DNA of 59,893 bases, the filler included. It is 4 parts of 4 records of this genome, joined end to end, with 100 filler letters (N's around TTAATTAATTAA, not from the genome) between each part and the next. Parts side by side here need not be neighbours in the genome. Positions count along the whole stretch, not along the records: positions 22,481 to 41,193 come from DRR723986_7442; 3 more parts are not named here. One strand, written 5' to 3'. Position numbers and translations under genes: made by a program. Below the pieces are notes generated by a model, which searched no databases, was not told the origin of the DNA, and saw only the letters and a program-made list of their open reading frames with translations. Below are positions 27,957 through 50,427 of the stretch, one piece after another; position 1 is the stretch's first letter; each line of letters opens with the position of its first letter.

Positions 27957-28129
27957 TATCCCGTCCTTGCTTTGTCAGGCGTCTTTCGCCCAGATTAGCC
28001 GAAATCTATGGGGTTTTGCCAGCTTCATGCAGAAATTCCTCACTGCGATACTGGCGAAGCGCGATCTGAGCCGATAAGCTTCTGGTTTATATGCCTTCGG
28101 GCCACCAATATGAAGAAGAAAGGGTGCGC

Positions 28130-31100
28130 ATGAAATCGAAGCGCAGTTTAGTACAGATATACCTCCTCAGCCTGGTTGCCTTGTCGGCAATTCCGCTAGC
28201 TGTGCTGGGTTACATCTGGATCGCCAAAGAGTACGAGCGCTACACTCAGCAGAGTGAGGATTGGCGCGACAGTTATATCGAGTCGCGCCGTGAACTGCTG
28301 CGTCGCGAGGTCGACAAGGCCGTTGAGTACTTAGAGTTTAGGCGCACTCAGCTCAACCGTCAGCTATACAACGACCTGCGCCACCAAGTGGCCATTGGTC
28401 TGTCTCTCATAGAGAACACGCGCAAGGAATATGTGGGTGAGAGCCGTAAGGAACAGCTGAGCCGCTTGCGCACAACAATGAGCTCGCTCAGCTTTCACGA
28501 CAACAACGGCTTTTTCTTTCTTTTCGATTCCGCCGGGCGGGCAATTTTGCCGCCCATGCATCCCGCTGGTGATAAACGCCTGAGCGACGGCAAGGTACTT
28601 AATGCCTTTGCCGAACAGATACGCTCGGTCACACAAAAGAAAAATTACGACTTTGTAGAATACCGAGTCACTGACAGCAGTCGCCCTGGCACCAGTGAGC
28701 GCAACTTCAGCTTTGTGTACTACTTTGAGCCGCTTGGCTTGTACATGGGGGCGAGTGTTTACCTGCATGACGAGATTGCGCGCGTACAGAAAGAAGTTGT
28801 TGAGCGTATAGCCGCTGTGCCCGTCGATACCGAAAACTCAATCCTGTTTATGGTGGACGGCGATGGGCGGCAGTTGGTCAATGGCTATGACCCCGAGGCA
28901 GTGGGCCAGCCAATGCCGGACGTGCTTGCCGTTACTCAGGGGTTGGACGCCGAAAACAACAGCTTGTTTACCGAGCTAAATTGGCGAAACCGGGAAGGCG
29001 GCCAGCAGCCGGTGGTTTCCTATATCCGTCGCTACCAGCCCTGGGGCTGGACCCTGGGCTCGGCAGTGTTTTTGGACGAGCTCAATGCCAAACTGTTGGC
29101 TGAGCGCTCCGCCCTGCAGAGCCGTGTAGAAGAACATATTTTATTCATACTGGTCATCGCCTTCGGCCTGATGCTGTTCTCGATGATCGCGGCGCGCTGG
29201 TTGGCTCGGCGCAGTGCGCACGGCTTCAATATCTTTCAGCAGTTCTTTGCCGACGCCAGCAAGCGTTCAACATTTATCGACGTGGAGCGGCTGCCGTTTG
29301 CCGAGTTTCAACACTTGGCGGAAGATGCCAACTTCATGGTCGAGAAGCGCACCCAAACGGAGCGCGCGCTTAAACTCAGTGAACGGCGCTTCCAATTAGC
29401 CTTGGATGCCGCCCAAAACCACCTCTGGGATCTCGACTTAAGCACTGGCTTAGTGACCGTGGGTGCCAGCTTCTTTCGCTCGCTGGGCTACACCCCACCG
29501 AGCAAGCCCTATGCCGTGGCGGCATTCAAAGAAATTGCCTACCCGGATGATCTGCAGATTATCGCCTCTGCCGTTGATAGTTGGTTGGGTTTGGCAACTG
29601 GCAATAGTGTCGAGTTTCGGGTTCGCGACAGCGACGGAAATTACCACTGGATATACAGTCGCGGCGACGTTGTAGAAAATGACGAGCGCGACCAGCCCCT
29701 GCGCGCCATGGGTATCATGACCGATATCACCGAGCGCAAGCGCATGGAGCAGGATTTGGTGGATGCACGCATTGCCGCTGAAGATGCGCTCCATGCCAAG
29801 AGTCAGTTCCTTTCAAGTGTGAGCCACGAGCTGCGGACACCGCTTAACGGCGTACTGGGCTACGCGCAATTATTGCAAAAAGAGCAGGGCTTCCCGCCAG
29901 ACAGCAAAGAGTATTTGCGCGCGATCGAAAGCTGCGGCAAGCACTTGTTGAACTTGATTAACGATGTGCTCGATCTGGCAAAAATTGAAAGTGGCAATAT
30001 CAATATCGTATGCGAAGCGAATGACCTCGATGATGTTATCGCCAGTGTTGGCGACATTGTCGGCCATCGCGCGAAGTCGAAAGGCCTGGAGTTCATCATT
30101 GAGGTTGGCGACGATGTTGAGCGCAAGCTGCAATTCGACGCCGTAAAACTGCGGCAGGTATTGGTTAACCTGCTCGATAACGCCGTCAAGTTCACCAACA
30201 GTGGACAGGTAGGCCTGAAGGTTGGTGTTAACGAAGTTGACGATAGCTTGCAGTTTGAGGTTCGCGACTCCGGTATTGGTATTCCCGCCGACAAGCTGCG
30301 AGATGTTTTTGAGCCCTTCCGCCAAGTGAATCCTCAAGACGGTAAGGGAACGGGGCTCGGCCTGTCGATCTGTCGCCGCTTGGTAGAGGCGATGGGTGGC
30401 AGTTTGAATGTGCGCAGCGAGGAAGGTGTTGGCAGCTGTTTCTACTTCCATATCCCGCTAATGCCTGTGTCAGAACAAAGCTCGCCGTTATTGGATGCGC
30501 CCGAAACGCCGGAGCCCGTCGCCGAAGAAGCCGAGATATCGGGTAATCCTGCGGTGATTGTTGCCGACGACGTTGCGGTGAATCGCCAGGTATTGCTGGG
30601 CATGCTCGAAGATATTACCGACGACGTTCGAGAAGCGGCGAACGGTCTTGAAGTGATAGAGCGTTTGAAGGAGCGCGACGCCGCCGTTATTTTGATGGAT
30701 TTGCGAATGCCGGAAATGGACGGCATGGAGGCAACGCGGATCATTAAGCAGGAAATGAAACACGATGTTGCCATTATTATGGCATCAGCCACCACCGACG
30801 AGGGAATGGTGGAAGAAGCGCGCTCCTTCGGCTGTGATGATTTCCTTCCCAAGCCGATTAGCATGGCAGACCTGTACAAGGTAATGGCGCGATTCTGCGA
30901 TACCGCCGTGCCGGACGATTCACCGGTGGCGAGCGTTGCGCCGGCGGCGTTAAAAGCGGGATATATCGATGTTTATCCGAACGCATCAGCGTCTGAGGAT
31001 GTGCCGCTGCCCGAGGAATTGCTGGAAAAATTAGCCCACGCCGTAGACCTCGGTGATGTCACCGGGTTGCGAGAACTGCTTGAGGTGCTGCGTAAGCGTC

Positions 31101-31219
31101 ACCCAGAGCAGCGCGAATTGAGCGAAGAGGCCGAGCGCCTCCTGCGTGAATTCGACTTTGAGCGCTTAGGGCAATTGTTCAAGTCAGTAAATGAAGGAGC
31201 CGCCGTCGATGGCACCTGA
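28130..31219 (+). CDS. Hybrid sensor histidine kinase (Cache-type periplasmic region, PAS, HisKA, HATPase, REC)
   Basis: Two TM segments flanking a Cache-like region (YQPWGWTLG); PAS ending in DITERK; SHELRTPLN; NLLDNAVKF; GTGLGL; LMDLRMP. Start 28130 or 28091. Confidence 0.92.
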   Translation: MKSKRSLVQIYLLSLVALSAIPLAVLGYIWIAKEYERYTQQSEDWRDSYIESRRELLRREVDKAVEYLEFRRTQLNRQLYNDLRHQVAIGLSLIENTRKEYVGESRKEQLSRLRTTMSSLSFHDNNGFFFLFDSAGRAILPPMHPAGDKRLSDGKVLNAFAEQIRSVTQKKNYDFVEYRVTDSSRPGTSERNFSFVYYFEPLGLYMGASVYLHDEIARVQKEVVERIAAVPVDTENSILFMVDGDGRQLVNGYDPEAVGQPMPDVLAVTQGLDAENNSLFTELNWRNREGGQQPVVSYIRRYQPWGWTLGSAVFLDELNAKLLAERSALQSRVEEHILFILVIAFGLMLFSMIAARWLARRSAHGFNIFQQFFADASKRSTFIDVERLPFAEFQHLAEDANFMVEKRTQTERALKLSERRFQLALDAAQNHLWDLDLSTGLVTVGASFFRSLGYTPPSKPYAVAAFKEIAYPDDLQIIASAVDSWLGLATGNSVEFRVRDSDGNYHWIYSRGDVVENDERDQPLRAMGIMTDITERKRMEQDLVDARIAAEDALHAKSQFLSSVSHELRTPLNGVLGYAQLLQKEQGFPPDSKEYLRAIESCGKHLLNLINDVLDLAKIESGNINIVCEANDLDDVIASVGDIVGHRAKSKGLEFIIEVGDDVERKLQFDAVKLRQVLVNLLDNAVKFTNSGQVGLKVGVNEVDDSLQFEVRDSGIGIPADKLRDVFEPFRQVNPQDGKGTGLGLSICRRLVEAMGGSLNVRSEEGVGSCFYFHIPLMPVSEQSSPLLDAPETPEPVAEEAEISGNPAVIVADDVAVNRQVLLGMLEDITDDVREAANGLEVIERLKERDAAVILMDLRMPEMDGMEATRIIKQEMKHDVAIIMASATTDEGMVEEARSFGCDDFLPKPISMADLYKVMARFCDTAVPDDSPVASVAPAALKAGYIDVYPNASASEDVPLPEELLEKLAHAVDLGDVTGLRELLEVLRKRHPEQRELSEEAERLLREFDFERLGQLFKSVNEGAAVDGT

Positions 31220-32762
31220 TCGCGGCGGAGAGCAGATACTGCTCGTCGACGACAATCCCACCAATCTCCAGGTATTGTTTAAGACGCTTGAAGGCAGTGG
31301 CTACCGGCTGTTGGCCGCGCGCGACGGTGAGTCAGCGCTCTACACGGCAAAGCGCGCCAAGCCCGCGCTGATACTGCTGGATGTCATGATGCCGGGGGTC
31401 GACGGCTTTGAGGTTTGTGAGCGCTTAAAAGCGGACCCCGAAACCGAAGATATCGTCGTTATTTTCCTCTCGGCATTGACCGATAGTCAGTCCAAAGTAC
31501 ACGGCCTGGCCATTGGTGGTGTCGACTATATCGCCAAACCCTTCCAGGCCGATGAAGTACTCGCGAGGGTGCGCACGCACATCAAGTTGCAGCGCCTGGA
31601 GCGAGCGCTCGCCAAGCGAAATAGCGAACTAGAGGATGAGAATCAGCGTATTCTCAACGCCGTGGATGAGGGGATTTTTGGCCTCGACAGCGCCGGAAGG
31701 GTTTCCTCGATGAACGCGCGTGCCGCAGAGCTCACCGGCTGGCCACAGGCTGACGCGCTGGGCGAGCCGCTGCTGGCACTGAAACTGTTCCCCGGCGACG
31801 ACGGCTTAAACCAAGCCTTGTCGCTGCTCTGCGAAGCCGGTGTGAGCTTGCGCAAGAACCACGTTGAGCTAACCGGCAAGGACGGCGAGCTGGTTCAGGT
31901 GGCCTTGAGCGGCAGCGCCAGCGCAGAGGGTGGGGCAGTGCTAGTATTGCGCGATATTGGCGAATGGCTGGCAAATCAACAAGCGCTGGAGGCGGCCAGA
32001 AACGAGGTGGACCACCAGCGTCAGCACCTGGCGCATATTGAGCGTTTAAGCACCGGGGGCGAAATGGCAGCGGGTATCGCCCATGAGGTCAATCAGCCAC
32101 TTACCGCAGTGAGTAATTACGCCCGCGTTGCCCAGCGCCTGCTGGCGGACTTACCCGATGCGCAGCGCAGTAAGCTGGACGATGTGCTGAGTAAAATCGG
32201 CGTGCAGGCCGAGCGCGCGTCGGCGGTGATTCAGCGGATGCGCAGTTACGTGAAAAAACCCTCAGGGGCGAAGGCGACACTGTCGCTCAATGAATTACTG
32301 GAGGACGTGTTGGCGCTGGCGGAGGTGGATTCGAAGGTCAACCGTACTCGCGTAGTGTTTATGGGCGCCAATGACCTGCCAACAGTCTATGGCGACGAAG
32401 TGCAGATTCAGCAAGTCGCCCTGAACCTGATTCGCAATGCGATGGAGTCGACCGCGGCGGCGCAAAGCACCAGGCCGGTTGAGGTGAGTACGTTTTTCGC
32501 CAACGGCCGGGTTGGTTTTCGCGTTCGTGATTTTGGTCTCGGTCTCGCAAAGGAAGTGGAAGAGCAGTTATTCAGCCCCTTCGTCACTTCCAAAGAGGGA
32601 GGGATGGGGATTGGTCTGTCAGTGTCCCAGACGATTATGCAGGGCCATGGTGGCGATATCGCCTACGAGGCCAACCCGGGTGGCGGGGCAGTTTTCTGTT
32701 GCGAATTTCCCGTTGCACAAGATCCAGCGTTGACGGATTCGCGTGACTCCGCCAGCGACTGA
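31209..32762 (+). CDS. REC-PAS-histidine kinase (FixL/NtrB-type kinase core)
   Basis: LVDD and LLDVMMP receiver; PAS; AHEVNQPL; NLIRNA; GMGIGL; overlaps the upstream kinase stop. Confidence 0.92.
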   Translation: MAPDRGGEQILLVDDNPTNLQVLFKTLEGSGYRLLAARDGESALYTAKRAKPALILLDVMMPGVDGFEVCERLKADPETEDIVVIFLSALTDSQSKVHGLAIGGVDYIAKPFQADEVLARVRTHIKLQRLERALAKRNSELEDENQRILNAVDEGIFGLDSAGRVSSMNARAAELTGWPQADALGEPLLALKLFPGDDGLNQALSLLCEAGVSLRKNHVELTGKDGELVQVALSGSASAEGGAVLVLRDIGEWLANQQALEAARNEVDHQRQHLAHIERLSTGGEMAAGIAHEVNQPLTAVSNYARVAQRLLADLPDAQRSKLDDVLSKIGVQAERASAVIQRMRSYVKKPSGAKATLSLNELLEDVLALAEVDSKVNRTRVVFMGANDLPTVYGDEVQIQQVALNLIRNAMESTAAAQSTRPVEVSTFFANGRVGFRVRDFGLGLAKEVEEQLFSPFVTSKEGGMGIGLSVSQTIMQGHGGDIAYEANPGGGAVFCCEFPVAQDPALTDSRDSASD

Positions 32763-37921: not shown

Positions 37922-39130
37922 ATGAATGAGTTCTGGCGCAGTATCCTGGGGCCGGAAATGCCACCCCATGGTCACTGCTACCTTTGGAATGAGCAGTTGG
38001 TGTTTCTGCACGTTCTTAGCGACACCTTAATTACCCTGTCTTACTTCACGATTCCCATTGCTTTGATTGTCCTCGTCAAACGGCGTGACGATCTCAAGTT
38101 CAATTATATGTTCTTGATGTTCGCGGTGTTTATTTTTGCGTGTGGTACCACGCACTTAGTGAATATTCTGAATGTTTGGTACGGTGCTTATTGGTTAAGC
38201 GGCACCATAAAGGCGATAACAGCCATCGCCTCTGTCGGCACGGCAATACTCGTGTGGCCCCTCATCCCCAAAGCCCTGGCGTTGCCGAGTAACGCGCAGT
38301 TGGTCGAGCTGAACAATCAGTTACAGAATGAAATTGCGGAGAACCGTCGTAAACAAGAAGAGGTGGAGCGTTTGTCGGCAGACTTGCAGAGCCTTGTTAC
38401 CCAGCGTACCGAAGAGCTCGCCGAAGCGCGGTTGAATAAAACCCTACTCGAAAAGACCAATGAGTCGCTCAGTAATAGCAATACGGCACTGGAAGAATTC
38501 TCGCGCGCCAGTACCGAGGGTTTTGTCGAGCCCTTGAGGGTTATCGATGTATACAGCAAGCGCCTACAAGAGCGCGCTGGCCAGGAGTTGAGCGAGGAAT
38601 CGCGGCAATGGTTAAGCAAAGTCCGTGAGGCAAGCAGCCAGGCGTCGCGCTTGAATGCCGGCTTGCAGCGTTATAGCCAGCTGCCCTTGAATGAGCCCGT
38701 TGAGGAGTTGAGCCTGGACAGCTTGGTGTCGCGAATTATCGACGACGAGGCGATGGCCGATGTCGTGAGCATTCAACCGCCCGGCTTGGGTACCGCCGTG
38801 CTGCCGGGTGGAACGCTGACCTTGGTTATCAGAGAATTATTGCGCAACGCCAAACGCTTCAGTGGCCAGCGCCCATTGCGAGTGGATATCGGCCGCTTAC
38901 CCGACCCCACGACGGGTGGCCTCGCGCTGTTTGTACGGGATAACGGCCGCGGGATTCCCGCTGCCCAGCAGAAGCGTGTCTTTGCGCTCTTCGAGCAATT
39001 TCATTCGGAGGGCGAGGGTGTTGGCCTGGCGTCTATTCGCCGCCTCGTTAGTGAATATGGTGGCCGTGTCAGCGTTATCAGTGACGGAGAGAGTGGCAGC
39101 GAGTTCCGCGTTGAATTCCCGCTGCTGTAA
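37922..39130 (+). CDS. ETR1-type ethylene-binding-domain sensor with a degenerate histidine kinase
   Basis: PHGHCYLW, SDTLITLSYFTIP and FIFACGTTH match the ethylene-binding domain. The H-box reads STEGFVEPL (no His). The ATPase motifs RNAKRF, DNGRGI and GVGLA are retained. Confidence 0.85.
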   Translation: MNEFWRSILGPEMPPHGHCYLWNEQLVFLHVLSDTLITLSYFTIPIALIVLVKRRDDLKFNYMFLMFAVFIFACGTTHLVNILNVWYGAYWLSGTIKAITAIASVGTAILVWPLIPKALALPSNAQLVELNNQLQNEIAENRRKQEEVERLSADLQSLVTQRTEELAEARLNKTLLEKTNESLSNSNTALEEFSRASTEGFVEPLRVIDVYSKRLQERAGQELSEESRQWLSKVREASSQASRLNAGLQRYSQLPLNEPVEELSLDSLVSRIIDDEAMADVVSIQPPGLGTAVLPGGTLTLVIRELLRNAKRFSGQRPLRVDIGRLPDPTTGGLALFVRDNGRGIPAAQQKRVFALFEQFHSEGEGVGLASIRRLVSEYGGRVSVISDGESGSEFRVEFPLL

Positions 39131-39135
39131 TTCGC

Positions 39136-39378
39136 TCACTTTTTGTCTGGTGAGCCGTCAATTTTGTCGAGAATGCGGGTAGCAGTGTCGTTGTCCTCTT
39201 GCCAGAGTTGACGGGCTAACCTTGCTGCGGTGTCGCGGCTTGTCACTAAGTGCTGCCGAAAGCGCCGACAGGGGCCGCAGATCATCAGGTGCATTTTAAA
39301 TTGCAGGCCTGCCCAACCGCGCGGTGGGTTATCGAGGTGGTCACTGGCCAAATGGCTTACTTCCTTGCAGCTTAGCAT
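39136..39378 (-). CDS. zf-HC2 zinc anti-sigma factor
   Basis: MLSCKE...SDHLD and HX3CX2C motif HLMICGPC; overlaps the sigma gene stop. Confidence 0.88.
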   Translation of the reverse strand: MLSCKEVSHLASDHLDNPPRGWAGLQFKMHLMICGPCRRFRQHLVTSRDTAARLARQLWQEDNDTATRILDKIDGSPDKK

Positions 39379-39986
39379 TCCCCCGTCTCCTGAAAGTGGT
39401 CGACAACATCTAATAGCTTGAGTCGCGCTCGGTGAAGTAATACGCGTACATTGCTTTCGCTTAGCAGCAATTGATCGGCAATATCACTCAGTGGCATTTG
39501 CTCTATATCACGCAGCATAAACACCGCTTTTTGGTTCTCCGGTAGCAACGTTAATGTGTGCTCGATACAACAGCGCAACTGGTCTTCCTCTAGCAGGCGT
39601 TCCGGCGTGCCCAGTTCCCAATGCGCTGGCGGGATTTGCCAGTGGCCATCGGCGGCGAAACGGCTCTCCGCGAGCGCTGCAGGAAGCTGTTCGGTATCGG
39701 CTACATTCATATGGCGCTTCTCCTTGCGAAGTCGCGATTTGGCCTCGTTACTGACGATCTGAATCATCCAGGTCGATAGTGCAGAGCGTCCTTCAAAGCG
39801 GTTTATCGCCTTGAATATTGAGGTCCAGGCTTCCTGTACCACATCCTCGGCAAAGACATCACCAATAATGGCGCGGGCCACAATGAGCAGGCGCTGATTG
39901 TAGCGCACAATAAGATCCCTGAATGCGGCGTTGTCACCGCTTTGCAGGCGTTCGAGCAGGGCGTCGTCTTGCGTTACTTGTGACAC
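39372..39986 (-). CDS. ECF RNA polymerase sigma factor
   Basis: AEDVVQE, FEGRSALSTW, FAADGHW...W...PE linker, LPENQKAVFMLRD and NVRVLLHRARLKL; GTG 39986 assumed. Confidence 0.92.
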   Translation of the reverse strand: MSQVTQDDALLERLQSGDNAAFRDLIVRYNQRLLIVARAIIGDVFAEDVVQEAWTSIFKAINRFEGRSALSTWMIQIVSNEAKSRLRKEKRHMNVADTEQLPAALAESRFAADGHWQIPPAHWELGTPERLLEEDQLRCCIEHTLTLLPENQKAVFMLRDIEQMPLSDIADQLLLSESNVRVLLHRARLKLLDVVDHFQETGEC

Positions 39987-40081
39987 GCGTAGTGGCCTTC
40001 GTTTTATTGCGAAACGTAGGCCATAGTGTCCCTGATAACGCGACCCGACGGCAATGCTTGGCGGTAAAATTGCTGACATCT

Positions 40082-40705
40082 TTAGTGGCGTTGTCGCGTC
40101 ATGTAACGGTGGAGGCCGTCATCGATACTCACGTAGCGCCCTCCGCCCATTTTGATCAGGGCCAGTAGCATAATGAAATAAGTGGCTGCGAACTCGATGC
40201 CGTTGTTGAGGATCACGAAGTTGCCGCTCTCAGTCAGCCAATCGTAGTGGCCGTGTTCCTGTAGAATGGATTTCGCCGCGTCCAGTTTTTCCGCTGCGGC
40301 GTCAACACGGGCATTTGCAAAGGGGGCACTCGCATCGGCGATCGCTTGCCAGCCAAAGGACCAGTGCACGGTGGTGGCGGCCACCAGCATGGTAACGGCG
40401 AGCGGCACCGCTATCCAGCGTGTGGCGAGGCCAACGAGCAGCAGGGCGGCGCCCGCCAGCTCAGTGGCCGTAGCCAAGCCTGCCATCAGTGTTGGCATGG
40501 GTAGCCCGAGGCCCCACTCGGGGTTGCCAAACCAGGCGACGGTATCGTCGAAATGGCGGTACTTATTGCTGCCTGCCATCCAAAATATTGGTACCAGATA
40601 GAGCCGAATCAGCAGTGACGGCAGACCAGAGAGCGGCGTCAGCAGGCGCCCTAGTCCCTTGTGTAGGCGAGTGACCGTGTCAGTAGCGGTCTGGAGAAAC
40701 GTCAT
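40082..40705 (-). CDS. DoxX family membrane protein (HvfX/bufferin-locus type)
   Basis: LIRLYLVPIFWMAGSNK, WFGNPEWGLGLP, VHW, NFVILNNGIEF and GGGRYVSID; AAGGA RBS before ATG 40705. Confidence 0.88.
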   Translation of the reverse strand: MTFLQTATDTVTRLHKGLGRLLTPLSGLPSLLIRLYLVPIFWMAGSNKYRHFDDTVAWFGNPEWGLGLPMPTLMAGLATATELAGAALLLVGLATRWIAVPLAVTMLVAATTVHWSFGWQAIADASAPFANARVDAAAEKLDAAKSILQEHGHYDWLTESGNFVILNNGIEFAATYFIMLLALIKMGGGRYVSIDDGLHRYMTRQRH

Positions 40706-40738
40706 GGCGAGCATCCTTATTTTTACAGGTATGCGCCA

Positions 40739-40766
40739 TAGACGAACCGCGTTCGCCATTGTTACA
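40739..40766 (-). promoter_or_regulatory. ECF promoter for doxX-sigma-antisigma: TGTAAC-N16-CGTCTA
   Basis: Minus strand TGTAAC (40766-40761) aatggcgaacgcggtt CGTCTA (40744-40739). Confidence 0.75.
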
Positions 40767-40812
40767 CCGTCTGGAAATATTCCAGCGATGCCAATAAATT
40801 TTATTAATTCGC

Positions 40813-40840
40813 TGTAACAACTTTCTCTGTGAGTCATCTA
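40813..40840 (+). promoter_or_regulatory. ECF promoter for the RiPP precursor: TGTAAC-N16-CATCTA
   Basis: TGTAAC (40813-40818) aactttctctgtgagt CATCTA (40835-40840), mirroring the divergent copy. Confidence 0.7.
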
Positions 40841-40902
40841 TGCTGTAACGCAGGTGCTTTTCGCTGGCGTCAATTAAACTTTCTAAACGAGGTAGTACAT
40901 CC

Positions 40903-41193
40903 ATGAATAAATCAAAAATGACAGCACTGACCGCCGCCATGTTCGCTTCAAGTCTTGCTTCCGCTGCGGTGAGCGATAGCGGCAACCCCTTCAGTGCGCA
41001 ATCGCTGAGCAGTGGCTATCAACAAGTGGATTTTGGTAAGCACGCTGAGGGTAAATGCGGCGAAGGCAAGTGTGGTGGCAAAAAGGCCAGCGACGAAGGT
41101 AAATGCGGCGAGGGCAAGTGCGGTGGCAAAAAAGCCAGCGACGAAGGTAAGTGCGGCGAAGGCAAATGTGGCGGCAACAAAGCCCGTGACGAA
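40903..41193 (+). CDS. HvfA/BufA2-type EGKCG-repeat RiPP metallophore precursor (3'-truncated)
   Basis: GAGG RBS, Sec signal peptide, NPFSAQSLSSGY motif and six visible EGKCG motifs; runs into the contig end. Confidence 0.88.
41047..41193 (+). repeat. 48-bp coding tandem repeat (EGKCGEGKCGGKKASD) x3 plus the start of a fourth
   Basis: Units at 41047-41094, 41095-41142 and 41143-41190, differing mostly at synonymous sites. Confidence 0.95.
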
Positions 41194-41293
41194 NNNNNNN
41201 NNNNNNNNNNNNNNNNNNNNNNNNNNNNNNNNNNNNNTTAATTAATTAANNNNNNNNNNNNNNNNNNNNNNNNNNNNNNNNNNNNNNNNNNNN
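41194..41293. other. Artificial contig linker
   Basis: N44-TTAATTAATTAA-N44. Confidence 0.98.
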
Positions 41294-41426: not shown

Positions 41427-42251
41427 ATGACCATCGCCAACACCGGAACCGATCACCTGCTGGCCGCACTGGAAGGCGGGGTGCTGACGCTCACCATGAA
41501 CCGGCCCGAGGCGCGCAATGCCATGTCGGGCGAGATGAATGCAGCGCTTGGCGCGGCGCTGGCGAAGGCCGAGCTGGACCCTGAGGTCCGCTGCATCGTG
41601 CTGACCGGCGCCGGCAAGGGCTTCTGCGCGGGCGGTGACGTGAAGGGCATGAACGCGCGCAACACCGGCGGCGGGCGCGAGACCACGATCGACGAGGCGA
41701 TCCACACCCAGCGCGTCAACCAGCGTGCCACCTCCGGCAAGCTCTACACTATTCCGAAGCCGACCCTGGCGGCCTTGCCGGGCGCGGCGGCCGGGGCGGG
41801 GCTTGCGCTGGCGCTCGCCTGCGACATGCGCATCATGTCACGTAGCGCCATCATGACCACGGCTTTCGCGCGCGTCGGCTTTTCCGGCGACTATGGCGGC
41901 ACCTTCTTCCTCAGCCAGCTGGTCGGCCAGGCGAAAGCACGCCAGCTCTATTTCCTGTCAGAACGTGTGACCGCCGACGAAGCGCTCGCCCTCGGTCTCA
42001 GCAACTGGGTGTGCGACCCGGAAGACCTGGCAGCGCAGACGATGGACATCGCCCGGCGCCTCGCCTCCGGGCCGTCGGTCGCCTATCGCCACATGAAGGA
42101 AAATCTTAACCGGGCCATGTCGTCCGGCGATGTGTTCGACTGCATGGATCTTGAGGCCACGCACCACGTCCACTGCGCCGCGACAGAAGACCACCGCAAC
42201 GCCACCAAAGCCTTTGTCGAAAAGCGGGAGCCCGTGTTCCAGGGACGGTAA
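41427..42251 (+). CDS. Enoyl-CoA hydratase/isomerase (crotonase) family protein
   Basis: NRPEARNA, FCAGGDV and GAGLALALACD. It lacks the two hydratase Glu and has SGDYGG, as in PaaG-like isomerases. AGGAGG RBS. Confidence 0.9.
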   Translation: MTIANTGTDHLLAALEGGVLTLTMNRPEARNAMSGEMNAALGAALAKAELDPEVRCIVLTGAGKGFCAGGDVKGMNARNTGGGRETTIDEAIHTQRVNQRATSGKLYTIPKPTLAALPGAAAGAGLALALACDMRIMSRSAIMTTAFARVGFSGDYGGTFFLSQLVGQAKARQLYFLSERVTADEALALGLSNWVCDPEDLAAQTMDIARRLASGPSVAYRHMKENLNRAMSSGDVFDCMDLEATHHVHCAATEDHRNATKAFVEKREPVFQGR

Positions 42252-42305
42252 CAGGCCTTGATGCATGGCTTCACGGGCGCCACATGCGGCAGAGAGGGGC
42301 TGCTC

Positions 42306-43118
42306 ATGAAAACCGCCATCATCGGAGATGTGCACGGCGCACTCGGACCGCTACAGGCGCTGGTGGCGAAGCTGGCGCTTGGTGCGGGGGACCGGCTGGT
42401 CTTTGTGGGCGACCTTGTCGACAAGGGGCCGGACCCGGCAGGCGTGGTCCGCTTCGTCCGCCAGCTGAGCGAGACGGCGCCCTATGAGGTGATCCTCATT
42501 GAGGGTAATCATGAAGACCGCCACCGCCGCTATCACATCAACACGGCGAAGCGCCCGAAAGTGGCGCGGGAGATGGCGGCGGATGCGCCGGAGCTACCCG
42601 CGCTGGACGCGGAACTTTCAGAGGCCGACCGCGCCTTTCTGGCCACGGCCATCCCCTTCCTGCACTTGCCGGAATGGGGCGCACTGGTCGTCCATGGCGG
42701 CATTCCGGGCTCGCAGCGCAGCTTTCCCGAAACGGTGGACCTCGCCAATCATTGGCATGGCCGCCGTGCCAAGGCCTTCCGGAAAATCCTCCGGACCCGG
42801 TATGTCTCCGCAGAAACGGGGGAGTATCTTGCGCTCGGCCACAACAAGCCGGGCGACCCGTTTTGGGCAGACGTCTATGATGGCCGGTTCGGCCACGTCA
42901 TCTTCGGCCATCAACCCTGGCTGGATGGCCCGGCCTGTTTTGCCCACGCGACAGGCATCGATACAGCGGCGGTCCATGGAGGCCTGCTGACAGCGCTCAT
43001 CCTGCCGGAAGAGAGCGAACCTTATTTCGAAACTGTACCGGGCATCGACTATGCGCCCCGCAAAACCAGTGAATGGCCGGATCATCCGGGCCATGATCTT
43101 CGTCTGTTCCGCAGATGA
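42306..43118 (+). CDS. Metallophosphoesterase (PPP/ApaH-like)
   Basis: GDVHG, GDLVDKG, GNHE, VHGG, FGH and IDT motifs; ATG at 42306. Confidence 0.9.
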   Translation: MKTAIIGDVHGALGPLQALVAKLALGAGDRLVFVGDLVDKGPDPAGVVRFVRQLSETAPYEVILIEGNHEDRHRRYHINTAKRPKVAREMAADAPELPALDAELSEADRAFLATAIPFLHLPEWGALVVHGGIPGSQRSFPETVDLANHWHGRRAKAFRKILRTRYVSAETGEYLALGHNKPGDPFWADVYDGRFGHVIFGHQPWLDGPACFAHATGIDTAAVHGGLLTALILPEESEPYFETVPGIDYAPRKTSEWPDHPGHDLRLFRR

Positions 43119-43250
43119 CCGGGCAATTGGAATAGGCGAAATTTTTGCCAGAAACGCTTCAACTCGGTTCGTTCTGTCTTAGAATGGAAGTGATTTGCGG
43201 GCAGTGTGGTTTGGCTGCGTTCAGACTGTTCTTTGTGGCGGATGATGCAG

Positions 43251-44183
43251 ATGCCTGTTCTTAAGCGCATATTCGGGATGGATCAGCGTGTGGTGCCTAC
43301 CTGACCCGCCTCGGTTGATCCTTTCGGCAGGGAGGTCCACCGCCACCAGAGTGAGTTCGCTTCACTTGAATATATGGTCGATGGCGCCCCTGAGTTGCGC
43401 CCGCTCGTCATTCTGCAGTCGCTCGAGCTTTGCTGCTGGCCGACGGAACTGTTCTGCCGCACAGTGAAGGCGGCGGGCTTTCGGGTCATCTCGATTCGGC
43501 GTCCGGGGTTTGGCGCGAATTCGCCGCTGACCGACCGGGAGGCGCAAGCTGGCCTGATCCGGAGTTTTCTCGAGGAAATGAATTTTGAGGACGTGGTGCT
43601 GGTTGGAACCGGCTGTTCGAATCCGATCTGCGAGCGCGTGACCCTGTCAGGAGATTCGCGAGTCGCCTTTAGCGTGTTCTCCAATTGCGGCTTCAATTAT
43701 GACCAGATGGGTGAGTTTCAGCCGGAGTGGATCGCCAAGGCGCTCGAGCAGGCGCTCACCAGTCCTGCAGGCTGGCAGCTGTCCCTGATGGCGCTGAAGA
43801 GTTCCCGGGGCGTCTTCGGGCAGACCTGGGTTTTCGAGAATCTCTGGCGCAAGAGCATTGGCGACATCGCATTTCTCCGGAACAATCCTGAACTGATGTC
43901 GGAATCCATATCCATGTTTCAGGCGCGGCTGGATGTACCGACTTTCACGTTTGAGCTCGGTAATGCCCTGAAGGTAGACCCGATTTTATCGGATGGCTGT
44001 TTCAGGGATGTGCCGGCGATGACCATTTCAGGCAGCGAAACCACGGGCAGCTGGAAGGCCGGTATCGATCGCGAGGCGGATCGGCTGGGATTGCCACCTG
44101 TCGCCTACCTCTCTTCTGGCGACATGGCGGTTATCTACCAGTCTGCCGATGAGTTCTTTTCAGTTCTGACCGACGCGCTCTGA
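43251..44183 (+). CDS. Alpha/beta-hydrolase-fold protein, possibly with an in-frame TGA near the N-terminus
   Basis: RRPGFG and LVGTGC (degenerate elbow). The ORF from 43374 is in frame with upstream ATGs (43242-43278), separated from them by one TGA at 43302-43304. Confidence 0.55.
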
Positions 44184-44216
44184 TCAACATTACGAATTGC
44201 ACATAACACGGCGGCC

Positions 44217-44235
44217 TTAAGAGCTCATCAACCAT
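44217..44235 (+). promoter_or_regulatory. CtrA-like box TTAA-N7-TCAAC(CAT)
   Basis: One mismatch from TTAA-N7-TTAAC, about 60 bp before the 44294 ATG; extra GTTAA half-sites at 44256 and 44277. Confidence 0.45.
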
Positions 44236-44293
44236 CCTTGAGCATTCTGCGGACAGTTAATTTTCCTGCCCGTATTGTTAATGAGGATGCGTT

Positions 44294-45892
44294 ATGGCGA
44301 AGAACACTGTGCGCTGGGGCGCAGATGTCGGTTGTCAGACCAAGGTGAAGCCGCTTGAGCTTCCCAATGACCTGGCCGACCACGGCCTGAAAGGCAAACG
44401 AGCCAAGGGCGAGCTGGGAATCAGCCGCCAGATGACCCGCAAGGACGCCAAGGCCGATGCCCAGGATGGCCTGCCTGTGTCCGAGGCCATCACACAGGAC
44501 CAGTGGAGCGAGCGCGAGCAGATGATCGCCGAGCGTGCCGAGGAAGTGCGCCGCGGTCTCAGCACCTGGATGTCCACGGCGTCTGCATCTGTCCGCAACT
44601 ATATCGCCGATTACACGCCGATCGACATTCATCCCGATCAGCTGCGCGAAGCCATCAAGTCGGAAGAGAACGAATATCGTCACTATGAGACCGACGATAC
44701 GGCAGACGCCAAGGAAACCCATTCCGCGGCCATTATCGAACTGCAGCAGTTCCGTGCCCGTCACGGCGACCGGATCGGTGACCGCACACCGGACATCAAG
44801 AAGAACGTCGAGCAGGCGATCGCGATTCTCGTTTTCATCATGATCCTGGAAGGCGGCTTCAACGCCCTCCTGTTCAAGGATGCGCAGGCCAATGGCCTGA
44901 TCGGCGGCATGATGATCGCCTTTGGCGTCAGCGCCGTGAACGTCTGTCTCGGTGTGACCGCAGGCTTCTTCGGCCTGCGTTATGCGCTTAACAGCCCCAG
45001 CATCATCAAGAAAGTGATTGGCGGAACGGTTGCGACGGTCTGCATCATTTCCGGCATCCTGCTGAACTTCTTCGTCGCGCACTTCCGCGACGCTGTGGAA
45101 ACCGGCCTGCACAGCACGGAGGCCGATGCCGGGCTCGGAACCTTCTCCCTGTTCTCGATCTCGCCGTCTGAAGTGTTCGTCTCGATGTTCCCGAACATCG
45201 TCGGCCTCGACAGCTTCATCGCTCTCGGCCTCTTGTTCATGGGGCTGACGGTCTTCGGCCTGGCGATCTATGAAGGCTACGACCGTATCTCTGACCGCTA
45301 CCCGGGCTATGGCCGTGTGTGGCGCAAAGAGCGCAAGGCGTATGAGCGCCGCCAGCAGGTGCGCAATGCCGTCCGCGACGACCTGTCGGACTATTTCACG
45401 CACTGCCGCCAGTGGTTCGAGACGCAACAGTCTCGCCATGTCGCTGCCAAGCGTGAGATCGAGAAGGCGATGAACCTGCTGGATGCCCGGCGTGACTTTG
45501 CCATCGCGATTGCCTCGCGCGCTGCTGATCAGGAGCGCAGCCTGAAGGTCGCGTATCGCCAGGCGCACCGCCGTACCCGCAATGCGAACCGTGACCGCCT
45601 TGGGGATCAGGCGGCTTGCCCGGCCTATTTCGACGAGATCGTCACGCCGCAGCTGCCGTCCTACGACATGGCCAAGGAGCGGGAACAGGCGCAGGCTGCG
45701 ATGAAGACCATCGACAACAACATCACGGCCCTGAACATCTGCCGGGAATGGCTGGAGCAGCACATCCAGCACGTCCAGCAGGGGCTGTCGTCCATCGAGA
45801 AGAAAGTTGCTGAAGAAATCGGCAAGGTCCGTGAGGTCAAGCAGGTCAAGGGTTCTACCCATGTGCCTGTTGATCAGGCCCGCCGCGCCTGA
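44294..45892 (+). CDS. Uncharacterised multi-TM protein with N- and C-terminal coiled coils
   Basis: GAGG RBS; about four TM segments carrying polar residues (LEGGFN, SAVN, LNFFVAHFRD); DRYPGYG; long helical tails; host-like codon usage. Confidence 0.8.
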   Translation: MAKNTVRWGADVGCQTKVKPLELPNDLADHGLKGKRAKGELGISRQMTRKDAKADAQDGLPVSEAITQDQWSEREQMIAERAEEVRRGLSTWMSTASASVRNYIADYTPIDIHPDQLREAIKSEENEYRHYETDDTADAKETHSAAIIELQQFRARHGDRIGDRTPDIKKNVEQAIAILVFIMILEGGFNALLFKDAQANGLIGGMMIAFGVSAVNVCLGVTAGFFGLRYALNSPSIIKKVIGGTVATVCIISGILLNFFVAHFRDAVETGLHSTEADAGLGTFSLFSISPSEVFVSMFPNIVGLDSFIALGLLFMGLTVFGLAIYEGYDRISDRYPGYGRVWRKERKAYERRQQVRNAVRDDLSDYFTHCRQWFETQQSRHVAAKREIEKAMNLLDARRDFAIAIASRAADQERSLKVAYRQAHRRTRNANRDRLGDQAACPAYFDEIVTPQLPSYDMAKEREQAQAAMKTIDNNITALNICREWLEQHIQHVQQGLSSIEKKVAEEIGKVREVKQVKGSTHVPVDQARRA

Positions 45893-45906
45893 GGAGATAA
45901 CTGGTC

Positions 45907-46683
45907 ATGGCAAGACGCAGGAGTACTCGTGGTCCCTGGTTCTGGCGTGGCACCATAGGTGCCATGCTGACCGGCGTGTTCGGCCTGTTCGCACTGGTCG
46001 CTTTCAGCCAGCCGCCTGCCGTGGCGCCGGACACCAGCTGCCGCCTGGACCACAAGGACCCGGCGCATACGATCCTTCTGATCGACCAGTCGGACCCGTT
46101 CAATCCGAACGACATGGATTGGGTGCGCGAACTGGTGAACGACGAGGCCCGGTCACTGCCGAAGTTTGGCAAGCTGAGCGTGATGGTTCCCAACGCAGCA
46201 GACCCGTACAATCCGAAAGTTCTGTACACGTCCTGCTCGCCGGGCAGCGCAGCTGCGGCAAACCCGATCACGCAGAACCCGAAAATGATCGAACAGGCCT
46301 GGCAGAAGAAATTCTACCAGCCGCTGGTCGGCACGGTGGAAGAGGCGCTGATGGACAAGGAGCAGCCAAGCTCTCCGCTGAGCGAAGCGATCTACTCGAT
46401 CTCCGACCGGGCAGACTTCCAGCCCCAACAGGCCGGGCGCCGCGTCGTGCTCGTCTCAGACCTGATGCAGCATTCCGGCGGCTTCTCCTTCTACAAGATG
46501 GGCGCCGACTATGATGCCTATCTGGAATCGGAACTGGCCGAAACGAAGCCCAAGCTGGAAGGCGTCGACGTCGTCGCCCGAATCGTGCCGCGCCAGATCT
46601 ACGACCTGCCGGTTGCGGACGTAAAAGGCTTCTGGCGCGCCTACTTCAACGATGCCGGCGCGATCTACGGGTCTGTGAACTAA
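45907..46683 (+). CDS. Membrane-anchored vWA-like protein
   Basis: GGAG RBS, one TM, MIDAS-like LLIDQSD, SSPLSEAI and VLVSDL; 14 bp after the preceding gene. Confidence 0.65.
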   Translation: MARRRSTRGPWFWRGTIGAMLTGVFGLFALVAFSQPPAVAPDTSCRLDHKDPAHTILLIDQSDPFNPNDMDWVRELVNDEARSLPKFGKLSVMVPNAADPYNPKVLYTSCSPGSAAAANPITQNPKMIEQAWQKKFYQPLVGTVEEALMDKEQPSSPLSEAIYSISDRADFQPQQAGRRVVLVSDLMQHSGGFSFYKMGADYDAYLESELAETKPKLEGVDVVARIVPRQIYDLPVADVKGFWRAYFNDAGAIYGSVN

Positions 46684-46706
46684 GTAAGGACGCAAGCCCG
46701 CGCGCG

Positions 46707-46779
46707 CGATTTCGCTCAGCATGAGCGCTGAGGAAGTGCATCACAGAATGGAACCCATCCTGAACGAGGTCGAAGGATG
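46707..46779. repeat. Imperfect inverted repeat (REP-like/terminator) between convergent genes
   Basis: CGATTTCGCTCAGCATGAGC (46707-46726) pairs 14/20 with ACCCATCCTGAACGAGGTCG (46753-46772); the second arm also folds on itself (CATCCT...AGGATG). Confidence 0.45.
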
Positions 46780-46800
46780 ATTGCAGAGGGAGCGCTGGGC

Positions 46801-47577
46801 TCAGTCCTCAAAAACCCCGATTACCGGCACATGGTCTGACGGTTTGTCCAGGCTGCGGGCCTTGCGGTAGATTTCGACGGACTGGAGCCGGTCGGCGGCC
46901 TGCGGGGAGACCAGCAGATGGTCGATCCGGATGCCATGGTCCTTCTGGAAGGCGCCGCCCTGATAGTCCCAGAAGGTGTACTGGTGGGCGCGGCCATCGG
47001 TGATTTCGAACGCATCCGCCATGCCGAGGTTCTTGATCCGGCGGAAGGCTTCACGCGTTTCGGGCAGGGCGAGGGCGTCATCGGCCCATTTGGTCTCGTC
47101 CCAGCAATCCACCGCCGTGGGGATCGTGTTGTAGTCGCCGCAGAGGACGTAAGGCTCCTCGGCCTTCAGCCGCTCGCGGGCATGATCCAGCAGGCAGGCC
47201 ATCCATTCGAGCTTGTAGTTGAATTTCGGGCCCGGCGCCGGGTTGCCGTTCGGCAGGTAGAGCCCGCCGACCCGTACCGGCCGGTCGGCCATGACCAGCG
47301 CTTCGATGAAGCGGGCCTGGCCGTCCTCCATGGTGGAGAGGCCTTTCGTCACATCGTCCAGCGGATATTTCGAGAGAATGGCCACGCCGTTGTAGCTTTT
47401 CTGGCCCAGCACGGCGCAGTTCCAGCCGGCTTCTTCCAGTTCCATGTAGGGGAAGGCGTCCGTCTCGCACTTCAGTTCCTGAAGGCAGACGACATCACAA
47501 TCGATGTTCTGCAGCACTTCCTGCACAGTCGGGAAGCGCGCTTTGATCGAATTGACGTTCCATGTGGCAATACGCAT
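46801..47577 (-). CDS. xth: Exodeoxyribonuclease III
   Basis: [42 protein letters not shown] and SDHVP; true start 47577. Confidence 0.95.
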
Positions 47578-47661
47578 GCGCTGACCTTTAAGCAGCTTCG
47601 CCCCATTGTTCCAGCCAGTTACGGCCCTTATACTCCCGGAAACTTCAAGGAGACCCCCGGC

Positions 47662-47877
47662 ATGGCCCCCAGCTGGATTCAAATGCTGATCGTTGTGATC
47701 GTCGCGCTGCTGCTGTTTGGCGGCCGGGGCCGGATTTCCGGTATCATGACCGACATGGCGAAAGGCATCGGCGCCTTCCGCAAGGGCCTCAAGGATGAGG
47801 ACGAACCCAAGGCGGTCGACAAGGAAGACATGGTCGATGTCACGCCCCAGAAGGACGAAACCAAGGCTTCGTCCTGA
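47662..47877 (+). CDS. tatA: Twin-arginine translocase TatA
   Basis: AAGGAG RBS; TM-FGG hinge-amphipathic helix [11 protein letters not shown]; first gene of tatABC. Confidence 0.92.
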
Positions 47878-47899
47878 ACCCTGACGGAGGGCGCACCCC

Positions 47900-48340
47900 A
47901 TGCTGCCCGGACTCGGTTTTACCGAACTTATGGTGCTGGCCGTTGCGGCCCTGATCATCGTGGGTCCAAAGGACCTGCCGATGATGATGCGCCGTCTTGG
48001 CCAGTTTGTAGGCAAGGGCCGCGCCATGGCGCGCGAGTTCCAGGCCGCATTTGACGACATCGCCCGTCAGAGCGAACTCGACGACCTGCGCAAGGAAATC
48101 GAGGAATTGAAGATTTCCAATTCGCTGAAGCAGGCGACGAGCGACCTTTCCGACTATGAAAAGGACGTGAACTCCGCCGTCATGGCGCAGTCGCGGTCCG
48201 AGGCGGCGGCGAAGCTGGCCGAGCAGACTTCTCCGGAAATGCCGGAGTCCAAACCGGAATCAAAGCCTGAGGCGAAATCCGAACCGGACACCAAGCCCGA
48301 AACTGGCCCCGCCCCTGAGCCGAAGGGGGATCCGGCATGA
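47900..48340 (+). CDS. tatB: Twin-arginine translocase TatB
   Basis: GFTELMVLAVAALIIVGPKDLP; Pro/Glu/Lys-rich tail. Confidence 0.95.
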   Translation: MLPGLGFTELMVLAVAALIIVGPKDLPMMMRRLGQFVGKGRAMAREFQAAFDDIARQSELDDLRKEIEELKISNSLKQATSDLSDYEKDVNSAVMAQSRSEAAAKLAEQTSPEMPESKPESKPEAKSEPDTKPETGPAPEPKGDPA

Positions 48341-49164
48341 CGCATACGCCCCCCAAGGACGAGCAGCCTGAAATCCTGGAAGACGAGGTCGAGACCTCCC
48401 GCGCGCCGCTGCTGGAACATCTGACCGAGCTACGCTCCCGGCTGATCTGGAGCCTTCTGGCCCTGGCGGTGGCGACGATCGGCTGTTTCTTCTTCGCGCA
48501 GGACATCTACGAATTCCTGCTGGATCCGTTCGCCCGCATGGCGCAGGAGATCCGCGGCGCGAAACTGGACTTCATCTACACCGCGCCGATGGAGTTCTTC
48601 TTCGCCAAGTTGAAGCTCGCCCTGTTTGCGGGCATCTTCGTGGCATTCCCCTTTGTTGCCTGGCAGGTCTACGCCTTCGTGGCACCGGGCCTTTACAAGA
48701 ATGAGCGCGGCGCCTTCTGGCCATACCTGGTTCTGGCGCCGATTCTGTTCTCTTCCGGCGCGGCTTTCGTCTATTACGTCATGCTGCCGATGCTGGCGCG
48801 GTTCACCGTGGGCATGGAGCTGACCGACAGCGAGGTCGCCAACATCACCATGTTGCCCAGGGTGGCGGATTACCTGTCGCTCGTGATGGCGCTGATGCTG
48901 GCGTTCGGCATTTCGTTCCAGCTGCCGCTGATCCTGACTCTGCTCGGCAAGATCGGGGTCGTCAGCTCTGAAGGCCTGTCCAAAGGACGGAAGTTTGCGG
49001 TTGTCGGCATTCTTGCATTTTCGGCTCTGTTCACGCCGCCGGATGCAATCTCGCAGATCCTGCTGGCGGCGCCCGTGCTGTTCCTCTATGAGGTCGGCAT
49101 TCTGAGCGTGAAATTGATTGAGAAGAAAGAAGCTGAGCGCGAGGCGACTTCCGCTGCGGAATGA
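48337..49164 (+). CDS. tatC: Twin-arginine translocase TatC
   Basis: PLLEHLTELRSRL, FVAPGLYKNE, FQLP, TPPD and LYE. Confidence 0.97.
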   Translation: MTHTPPKDEQPEILEDEVETSRAPLLEHLTELRSRLIWSLLALAVATIGCFFFAQDIYEFLLDPFARMAQEIRGAKLDFIYTAPMEFFFAKLKLALFAGIFVAFPFVAWQVYAFVAPGLYKNERGAFWPYLVLAPILFSSGAAFVYYVMLPMLARFTVGMELTDSEVANITMLPRVADYLSLVMALMLAFGISFQLPLILTLLGKIGVVSSEGLSKGRKFAVVGILAFSALFTPPDAISQILLAAPVLFLYEVGILSVKLIEKKEAEREATSAAE

Positions 49165-49251
49165 CTGCGTCGCTGTGCGGCGCTGTTGAAATGACCGCAC
49201 GGATGTAGAACCTTACAAATGAGCCTGGCCTTGAGAAGCAAGGAGTAGTCT

Positions 49252-50379
49252 GTGGCGCGCGTGAAGAGCGTACTGCTCGTGGATTTTGACAACATTTTCG
49301 CCGCCACGGGCATGGCCATGGTCGACACGTTGCCGAAATGGCTTCTGTGGCTGACCGATGGTGCGCTGTCGGAGAAGGGACTCCGCCGCAAATTCGTCTC
49401 CAAACGGGTCTACTGGAACAGCCAGTATGACGTGCACCGCGAAGCCTTCCAGGCGGCGGGCTTCGAGACGTTCGACTGCCGCGCCCATGCCAAGACGAAG
49501 ATCGCCTCGGGCAAGTCTTCGGCCGACATTGTCATGACCATGGATGCCATTGAGTTGCACCACACGATGGGCGGCATCGATGAAATGGTCATCCTGACTA
49601 CCGATTCCGATTTCGTGCCCGTGGTAAACCGCCTCCAGCTGGCAGGCCTGCGTGTCGTCACGGCGGGCAAGGAAACCGACCCGACCTATCAACTATACTC
49701 CGAACATGCCGACGGCGTGATCCATATCGGTGCGTTGAAGTCGGCCTTCGATTATGAGCGCACGCCGCGCAAATGGTACAAGCTTCGCTCCGATCCGCCG
49801 GTGATCGCGCCGCTGCGCCAGCAGGCAGAGCGCCGCTCGCCGCTGATGAAGAAAGTACGCGAAGCGGTGCGTGTGGAGAAAGCAAACGGCACCCCGGCCG
49901 CGGTCCAGCAGATGCGGCTCGCCGCCGATATCGTGATGCAGCTGGGCGCCCGCACACCTGACCAGCCGCTGCCGCGCAACAAGGTGATCCGCGTGCTGGA
50001 AGGCGTGGAAGGCTTCCAGACCAAATATGGTAACCGGGTGAAGCCGTGGCTGGGCCAGAAGAACTTCAAGACGCTGATGTACAAGCTGTCGAAGGAAAAC
50101 CCGGACATCGAGGTCACGGAACTCGCCGACAAGACGGTGCGCATCGTGTGCCGCGTCCGCGGGCCACGTGGCCGGCGCGGCCGCATGGTCGGTGTACCAT
50201 CGCCGCTGGCGCCGCCGCCCAAAAAGCCTGAGCTGCCTGTAGAAACGGCATCGGAGAAGCCGCCTGAGAAATCCAACGGGCAGGCGCCGGAAAAAGTGAT
50301 CGATGCGGCCGCCGAGAAGCCGGCAGAAAAGCCGGCTGCGGCTGAAACGCGAGTGGACGCGCCTGCCGCAGCGGATTAG
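49252..50379 (+). CDS. NYN (LabA/DUF88, PIN-like) domain protein with a probable LOTUS/OST-HTH domain
   Basis: DFDN, KSSADIVMTMD and TTDSDF acidic motifs; WLGQKNFKTLM winged-helix-like segment; low-complexity tail. Confidence 0.85.
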   Translation: MARVKSVLLVDFDNIFAATGMAMVDTLPKWLLWLTDGALSEKGLRRKFVSKRVYWNSQYDVHREAFQAAGFETFDCRAHAKTKIASGKSSADIVMTMDAIELHHTMGGIDEMVILTTDSDFVPVVNRLQLAGLRVVTAGKETDPTYQLYSEHADGVIHIGALKSAFDYERTPRKWYKLRSDPPVIAPLRQQAERRSPLMKKVREAVRVEKANGTPAAVQQMRLAADIVMQLGARTPDQPLPRNKVIRVLEGVEGFQTKYGNRVKPWLGQKNFKTLMYKLSKENPDIEVTELADKTVRIVCRVRGPRGRRGRMVGVPSPLAPPPKKPELPVETASEKPPEKSNGQAPEKVIDAAAEKPAEKPAAAETRVDAPAAAD

Positions 50380-50427
50380 ACGCTGGGGCTGTAGAAGACC
50401 CTTAAAAGTCATCGAAGGCCCGATCCG

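Follow-up and report, generated by a model that had tools for sequence, protein, structure and literature searches.

The receptor gene and its neighbours

The window, i.e. the whole stretch of 59,893 nucleotides analysed here, contains at 37922..39130, on the plus strand, an open reading frame of 402 amino acids, the translated coding part being 37922-39127. According to translation, Pfam searches and a structural model, the whole gene encodes an ETR1-type membrane domain, a coiled coil, a DHp domain devoid of His and a CA domain. The protein is 100% (rounded) identical to that of Spongiibacter marinus DSM 17750 (locus L003), where the neighbouring genes match as well. The region initially annotated, 37922-38290, corresponds to the first 123 of the 402 codons only.

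All features of the gene lie on the plus strand. The PHGHCYLW motif (amino acids 15-22; 37964..37987) is the usual N-terminal motif of bacterial members, as indicated by comparison with outside relatives and by PMC6682694 (this and the other papers are cited for the available portions of their text). Three helices follow: helix I (amino acids 24-54; 37991..38083), placed by hydropathy and an AlphaFold model, holds D34, Y41, I44 and P45; helix II (61-87; 38102..38182), placed by hydropathy, the model and an alignment to AzoEtr1, holds I71 and, by homology, the copper ligands C74 and H78; helix III (90-111; 38189..38254), placed by the same alignment and the model, holds K97, equivalent to K91 of ETR1 and K98 of AzoEtr1. 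A coiled-coil linker (124-186; 38291..38479), which in the model is part of a helix unbroken from 124 to 219, leads from the sensor straight to a degenerate DHp domain (187-252; 38480..38677), recognized by orthologue alignment and Pfam HisKA score, where the codon at 38516-38518 specifies E199. The CA (HATPase_c) domain occupies 38702..39127, as indicated by Pfam, alignment and the full-length model. The layout is minimal, as had been stated together with the presence of PHGHCYLW: a Pfam search detected neither GAF nor PAS in the 402 amino acids.

No response regulator adjoins the gene, the locus being flanked by an acyltransferase and an anti-sigma/ECF pair, and a scan for promoters and terminators around the gene gave chance-level results only. 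In all four marine RNA libraries examined, contigs about 97-99% identical to the gene span it wholly or almost so; such contigs can show neither transcription nor strand. On the strand opposite to the receptor, 39136-41193 encodes an anti-sigma factor, an ECF sigma factor, HvfX (NF050144) and a divergent HvfA-type, EGKCG-repeat copper-binding RiPP precursor, the cluster being cut by the contig end. In two of the four RNA libraries the contigs on the precursor have the highest depth, a value inflated by the repeat. A PF05114 maturase for the cluster is located elsewhere in genome G001.

The ethylene-binding domain and its distribution

The initial annotation had described a plant-type ethylene-binding domain with all ETR1 ligand residues, and D34, Y41, I44, P45, I71, C74 and H78 are indeed all present in the translation and in the codon read-out. 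Their spaced pattern occurs a single time when all six frames of the window are read, vs 5e-6 expected occurrences. Pfam family PF25487 (ETR1_N) matches residues 26-121 with 125 bits (cut-off 27; E 1.5e-36). The alignment to AzoEtr1 is gap-free over residues 15-134, with 48% identity over 132 aa and identical letters in the seven residue columns. The Pfam match, the ligand residues and this alignment all point to an intact domain of ETR1 type.

The mapping onto ETR1 numbering runs through AzoEtr1, the alignment not including ETR1 and Slr1212 themselves. AzoEtr1 is said to retain all seven ethylene-binding residues, and its D35, C75, H79 and K98 were equated by the authors with ETR1 D25, C65, H69 and K91 (PMC11819568). 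Because of these equations and of the gap-free alignment, the proposed +9 offset to ETR1 fits D34, C74 and H78, and K97 is identified as the equivalent of K91; for this last residue the offset does not hold, being +6. We take ETR1 Y32, I35, P36 and I62 to be the counterparts of Y41, I44, P45 and I71.

Hydropathy reveals three hydrophobic segments in the domain, and the AlphaFold model (80-row alignment; mean pLDDT 89) predicts helices at 24-54, 61-87 and 90-111: both appear compatible with a three-helix domain. When the domain was used to search the PDB by sequence, only chance antibody matches were returned; the fold search with its model gave generic helical bundles (best Z 10.1, rmsd 3.6, 117 aligned residues, values in the common range). 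With no structure for the domain found in either search, the small receptor represents a compact structure target.

Residues 1-130 of AzoEtr1 bind ethylene (PMC11819568). Given the conserved residues and the homology to AzoEtr1, it is likely that the domain described here binds Cu(I) and ethylene. C19 may stand in for the dimer-forming cysteines of plant receptors; the single N-terminal Cys of bacterial members was remarked on in PMC6682694.

The sensed ligand might instead be copper status, or another ligand of Cu(I) (CO, an alkene or alkyne, a sulfur volatile), acting through the same dead-kinase output. This is unlikely, all three tested kinds of receptor (plant, SynEtr1, AzoEtr1) being reported to bind ethylene. 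In its favour, H16 and C19, both nearly invariant, could serve as metal ligands, the gene converges in 10 of 20 loci on the ECF sigma/anti-sigma/HvfX/HvfA copper-binding RiPP cluster, and the occurrence of PF02332 in 8 of 40 genomes, G001 not being among them, reveals no link to alkene use. The cluster, however, is on the opposite strand, is not seen beside the gene in the S. pelagi or Litorivivens loci, and has its maturase elsewhere. A link of the receptor to alkene catabolism was also considered in its own right, and rejected: PF02332 is distributed independently of receptor presence. PF02461, found in none of the 40 genomes, is uninformative, because the 14 controls lack it as well.

The domain matches 5,866 clusters at 50% identity (E <= 1e-10). 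Their presence in a gammaproteobacterium, which had been presented as surprising, turns out to be routine: the domain scores above the cut-off in 19 of the 401 gammaproteobacterial genomes sampled and in 33 of 301 of the order, and proteobacterial members were already noted in PMC7700396 and PMC11819568. The N-terminal motif and the minimal layout are not distinctive either. They were compared with those of 144 outside relatives, taken as outside the family among the best-scoring matches listed, 142 from the cluster search and two from a second search, the closest ones being left out; since the set is made of best-scoring matches, counts over it lean towards likeness. All seven residues are found in 142 of these 144 best-scoring matches, HGxCxxW in 141 and the exact PHGHCYLW in 60 (for the lone Cys, see PMC6682694 above); the same sensor-DHp layout, in proteins of 340-450 aa, is found in 19. 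The lysine equivalent to K97 is invariant, here as well as in the 60-protein set described below.

What stands out is retention throughout the family. In Spongiibacteraceae the receptor is found in 33 of 40 genomes, and in 22 of the 25 near-complete ones; in other families of the same order, the domain occurs in 24 of 291 genomes. One genome (G036) matches the receptor with a fragment containing a stop, and a second copy in G025 was not recovered by the extraction pattern. That one marine family has kept the receptor almost throughout suggests that a trace gas is of importance to these heterotrophs of the sea.

Some other proteins carrying the domain differ in their C-terminal part. L195 (G725) and L198 (G581) are stand-alone ethylene-type domains in frames of less than 200 aa, with a short coiled tail only. 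In two gammaproteobacterial ethylene-type receptors the kinase is altered: in L063 (G293) neither an H-box nor DxGxG is seen, and in L062 (G048) the His is kept and the G1 motif absent, so that kinase loss may recur outside Spongiibacteraceae. In L067 and L068 the domain is found on proteins of about 426 aa, whose C-termini, we presume, resemble PP2C/SpoIIE-type phosphatases.

The kinase half and the loss of its histidine

In the orthologue alignment, Glu199 occupies the site of the phospho-accepting His and Gly200 that of the acidic residue at H+1, the H-box reading STEGFVEPLR, vs SHDLKEPLR in intact relatives. No His is present in the translation from residue 79 to residue 360, and therefore none in the DHp domain, which scores 13 bits with the HisKA profile (cut-off 26.9); E203, P204, L205 and R206 (EPLR) are retained. 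The CA domain scores 67 bits with PF02518 and keeps N309, D340-G342-G344, F354 and G366-G368; the first Asn of the N-box is replaced by E305, and the ATP lid is about 4 residues shorter than in most orthologues. Fold matches of the full-length model are kinase cores only, with DivL (PDB 4q20) ranking fourth among ordinary kinases. Of the features of a canonical HisKA sensor kinase, the ATP boxes are found; the phospho-accepting His, the H+1 acid and an adjoining regulator are not. From these residues, the transmitter is in all probability devoid of His autokinase activity. Loss of the H+1 acid abolished kinase activity in Agp1, and the N-box Asn partners that acid in autophosphorylation (PMC8292422); we infer that the Asn in question is the first one, lost here.

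Loss of the His was followed across relatives in 32 loci, read by genome; the genus of the window is intended as the database defines it, including Zhongshania. Two of these loci run into contig ends, and in a third genome (G002) the kinase is a different one, which bears a His. Of the 22 readable genomes of the window's genus, 13 have another residue at the His site (R in 7, E in 4, Y and D in one each) and 9 keep the His; in the Litorivivens-type sister genus it is kept in 7 out of 7. By species, the site holds Glu in S. marinus, Arg in Z. aquimaris, and His in Z. antarctica and L. lipolytica. A set of 60 distinct proteins was also assembled: 29 come from the window and loci L001-L051, without L021, L046, duplicates and four truncated ones, and 31, including six outgroups, were hand-picked among the 120 listed of 792 matches. 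The extraction pattern for the locus rows needed part of the sensor motif, but excluded none of L001-L051. The His is missing in 24 of the 60 proteins (E 7, R 11, Y 3, D 1, G 1, Q 1). Among outside relatives with a CA domain, it is present in 85 of 89 (68 by alignment, 17 by eye), the other 4 being unreadable.

In the 24 His-less proteins, H16, H18, C19, W22, the seven residues and K97 are always kept, as are D340, G342, G344 and G368; N309 is kept in 23, and both the H+4 Glu and the H+7 Arg in 22. EPLR is invariant in 21 out of 21, after three divergent rows are set aside. The first N-box Asn follows the His: it is kept in 33 of 36 His-bearing rows vs 3 of 24 His-less ones. To judge from these alignments, the catalytic residues are lost jointly, and the fold, the ATP site and the face of helix 1 are held. 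The most degenerate lineage (P0065, P0075 and L128, the latter from G039) has lost the His, the H+4 Glu, the Pro and the H+7 Arg; its sensor is still invariant. L005 and L006, from Zhongshania, have the His and have already lost the first N-box Asn: they are possible intermediates.

The dN/dS ratio is 0.043 between the window and S. salexigens (L001), with DHp at 0.019/0.54 and CA at 0.009/0.41, and 0.030 for the His-less pair L024 and L026; six His-bearing pairs give 0.049-0.084. A usable whole-gene dS was obtained for two of the seven His-less pairs, five His-less and two His-bearing pairs being saturated. Divergence relative to the sensor is 2.3-2.7 for DHp and 3.2-3.3 for CA in two His-less clades, vs 1.9-3.7 and 1.9-6.1 in three His-bearing ones: both domains diverge no faster, with respect to the sensor, in His-less clades than in His-bearing clades. 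On the two unsaturated pairs, the His-less receptor is under purifying selection, and is not decaying; the two traits of a histidine pseudokinase, His loss and purifying selection, are both found, again on these two pairs. Very probably, the His-less receptor has a maintained function.

Such function could reside in the membrane domain alone, useful in itself, for example as an ion-permeable or copper-buffering dimer, the kinase half being a relic kept for folding. In certain members of the order the domain is followed by no output module (L195, L198) or by a broken-down kinase (L062, L063), and plant ETR1 is reported in a preprint to be permeable to Ca2+ (10.1101/2025.10.20.683334). For the kinase-degenerate subfamily of Arabidopsis, however, that preprint reports no permeability, and the DHp and CA domains, with dN/dS of 0.02-0.04 in both usable His-less pairs and invariant ATP motifs, do not behave as relics, which makes this explanation very improbable.

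As for the history of the loss, 19 His-less and 5 His-bearing Zhongshania rows fall in a single subclade. With the full protein, once the H-box and N-box columns are left out, a clade made of His-less rows only is rejected (47 rows, p-AU 4e-5); with the N-terminal half it is not (p-AU 0.088). The hypothesis of many independent losses was discarded: because two changes suffice and the mixed subclade appears in both trees, a single relaxation, with retention or regain of the His, is as good as several losses.

Two candidate partner regulators were examined. L184 and L188, close in sequence to Marinobacter matches, are loci of another family with the same layout and a His-bearing kinase, where a single-domain regulator lies directly downstream and overlaps the kinase stop. 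A regulator 36-40% identical to this one is found at or near the receptor gene in Litorivivens, and in 9 of the 10 genomes of that genus. As a cognate partner it is plausible, but it was set aside, since it directly adjoins the gene in only 2 (L012, L019) of the 7 loci where it or its neighbourhood is seen, and lies next to ectoine genes; in G002 it lies on another contig from the different receptor. The 28 genomes from the window's genus contain no match to it at E <= 1e-20; at a looser threshold, four of them give best matches of 5e-17 or weaker. Nine genomes of the genus keep the His, yet have no match to it, a point that weighs against the main reading given below. The second candidate, the L164 regulator, belongs to a paralogous kinase pair and is present in 23 of the 28 genomes; it was rejected, not being found in G019 and G040, both His-less and 100% complete. 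The simplest account is that the partner regulator was lost and the His, freed from constraint in the subclade, drifted to several residues.

Possible output of the receptor

The presence of the domain is for the most part routine; the finding proper is the transmitter, conserved though kinase-dead. Histidine pseudokinases as such are already known: DivL, PsmA and a ChrS variant (PMC4211667, PMC12963549, PMC9491836). With a chance that we place just short of even, the receptor may be a Cu(I)/ethylene-type sensor turned pseudokinase, which signals through the docking face for a response regulator. It would form a membrane homodimer, whose three-helix domain would hold Cu(I) at C74/H78; ethylene, or a similar small gas, would bind to this Cu(I), and the pair D34-K97 would relay the change upon ligand binding, after the model in PMC10266040. 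The binding state would then travel down the coiled coil to a transmitter unable to autophosphorylate. This would act on a regulator phosphorylated by another kinase, by either ligand-controlled dephosphorylation or binding and sequestration. The S. marinus genome gives 52 matches to receiver domains.

Since nucleotide binding and the EPLR face of helix 1 appear to be kept, the output is most likely exerted on a response regulator, although we favour this only slightly. In DrBphP, the H+4 Glu serves phosphatase activity, which needs ATP, and the H+7 Arg regulator binding (PMC8292422); because DrBphP keeps its own His, it is no proof of phosphatase activity in a His-less protein. DivL, on the other hand, binds DivK~P without phosphatase activity (PMC4211667). 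EPLR also forms the helix kink, and may be retained for structure; the existence of one His-less lineage without EPLR (P0065, P0075, G039) argues against an output through a regulator.

The same lineage, with its invariant sensor, speaks for an alternative, in which the ethylene-type sensor is an allosteric pseudokinase, acting on another kinase in a heterodimer or higher complex, or on a partner outside two-component systems, as plant receptors do on CTR1. Two kinases of the same subfamily, both with a His and each paired with a regulator (L164, L170), are present in S. marinus, and precedents are DivL on CckA (PMC4211667), RetS on GacS (PMC12189002) and the ChrS variant with HrrS (PMC9491836; see also PMC12963549). 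The His-less genome G040, however, has no close paralogue (best non-receptor match E 2.6e-22, vs 7e-42 in G001), and EPLR, invariant in the 21 non-divergent His-less rows, fits docking to a regulator as well. Allosteric action is, on balance, rather doubtful.

That the transmitter has come to autophosphorylate on Ser/Thr (or Tyr), a behaviour reported for subfamily-2 receptors of plants (PMC4479046), is scarcely probable. The ATP motifs are kept, S197 and T198 lie next to the lost His and three rows have Tyr at the His site; yet no one residue consistently replaces the His (E, R, Y, D, G and Q are all found), 10 of 21 rows carry Ala at position 198, and DivL, which has Tyr at that site, shows no autokinase activity (PMC4211667).

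Among known systems, AzoEtr1 of A. brasilense Sp7 (PMC11819568; L021, 525 aa, on a plasmid record) shares D, Y, I, P, I, C, H and K, and PHGxCxxW, with the Spongiibacter receptor; it differs by its PAS domain, its intact H-box and the regulator encoded next to it, all absent here. SynEtr1 (Slr1212 of Synechocystis PCC 6803), a proven bacterial receptor likened here by description, has the same domain family; it contains PAS/GAF, senses light and transfers phosphate from its His to Slr1213, whereas the Spongiibacter receptor has no phospho-accepting His. Similar in logic are ETR2, ERS2 and EIN4 of Arabidopsis (subfamily-2), which likewise combine an intact ethylene-binding domain with a His-kinase module without catalytic motifs (PMC4479046). 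They differ by four membrane segments and GAF, both absent from the Spongiibacter receptor, and by an output through CTR1/EIN2; as subfamily-2 arose in seed plants, the likeness is a convergence, not membership. Of the proteins with another sensor, DivL of Caulobacter is also a kinase-dead HisKA transmitter and binds ATP weakly (PMC4211667), PsmA of Streptomyces also has Glu at the His site and appears not to bind ATP (PMC12963549), and DrBphP of Deinococcus is phosphatase-only, with EPxR as in the Spongiibacter receptor and its own His kept (PMC8292422). In the mostly open-access literature consulted, no account was found of a His-less bacterial ethylene-type receptor, nor of the domain in Spongiibacteraceae; the surveys by Lacey and Binder 2016, Carlew 2019, Papon and Binder 2019 and Wang 2006 may mention cases.

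It is conceivable, at somewhat less than even chance, that a clade of marine heterotrophs independently repeated the plant step, obtaining an ethylene-gated receptor without His phosphotransfer that works through a bacterial partner. Plant ethylene receptors can signal without the need for His-kinase activity, by means that are understood only in part; phosphotransfer is used by SynEtr1 and predicted for AzoEtr1 (PMC11819568). A compact bacterial receptor made of sensor, coiled coil and dead transmitter, available in culturable type strains, would make the question testable, with the help of kinase-intact and kinase-dead orthologues side by side. If the above is true, the orthologues with and without the His, which share one locus in sister species, form a natural series of 402-aa proteins, which would serve to learn how ethylene binding controls a kinase-dead transmitter.

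Two further kinases, a Cache/PAS hybrid kinase and a REC-PAS kinase, are encoded at 28091-32762, 5 kb upstream of the receptor, and are syntenic in some relatives; no evidence links these two to the receptor. Downstream, at 41194-41293, a run of N with the TTAATTAATTAA spacer joins two contigs. Past position 41293, GC content goes up to 60-64%, compared with about 55% before, and hardly any of 42000-52000 is matched in the nearest genome: the DNA beyond the spacer probably belongs to another organism in the same bin.
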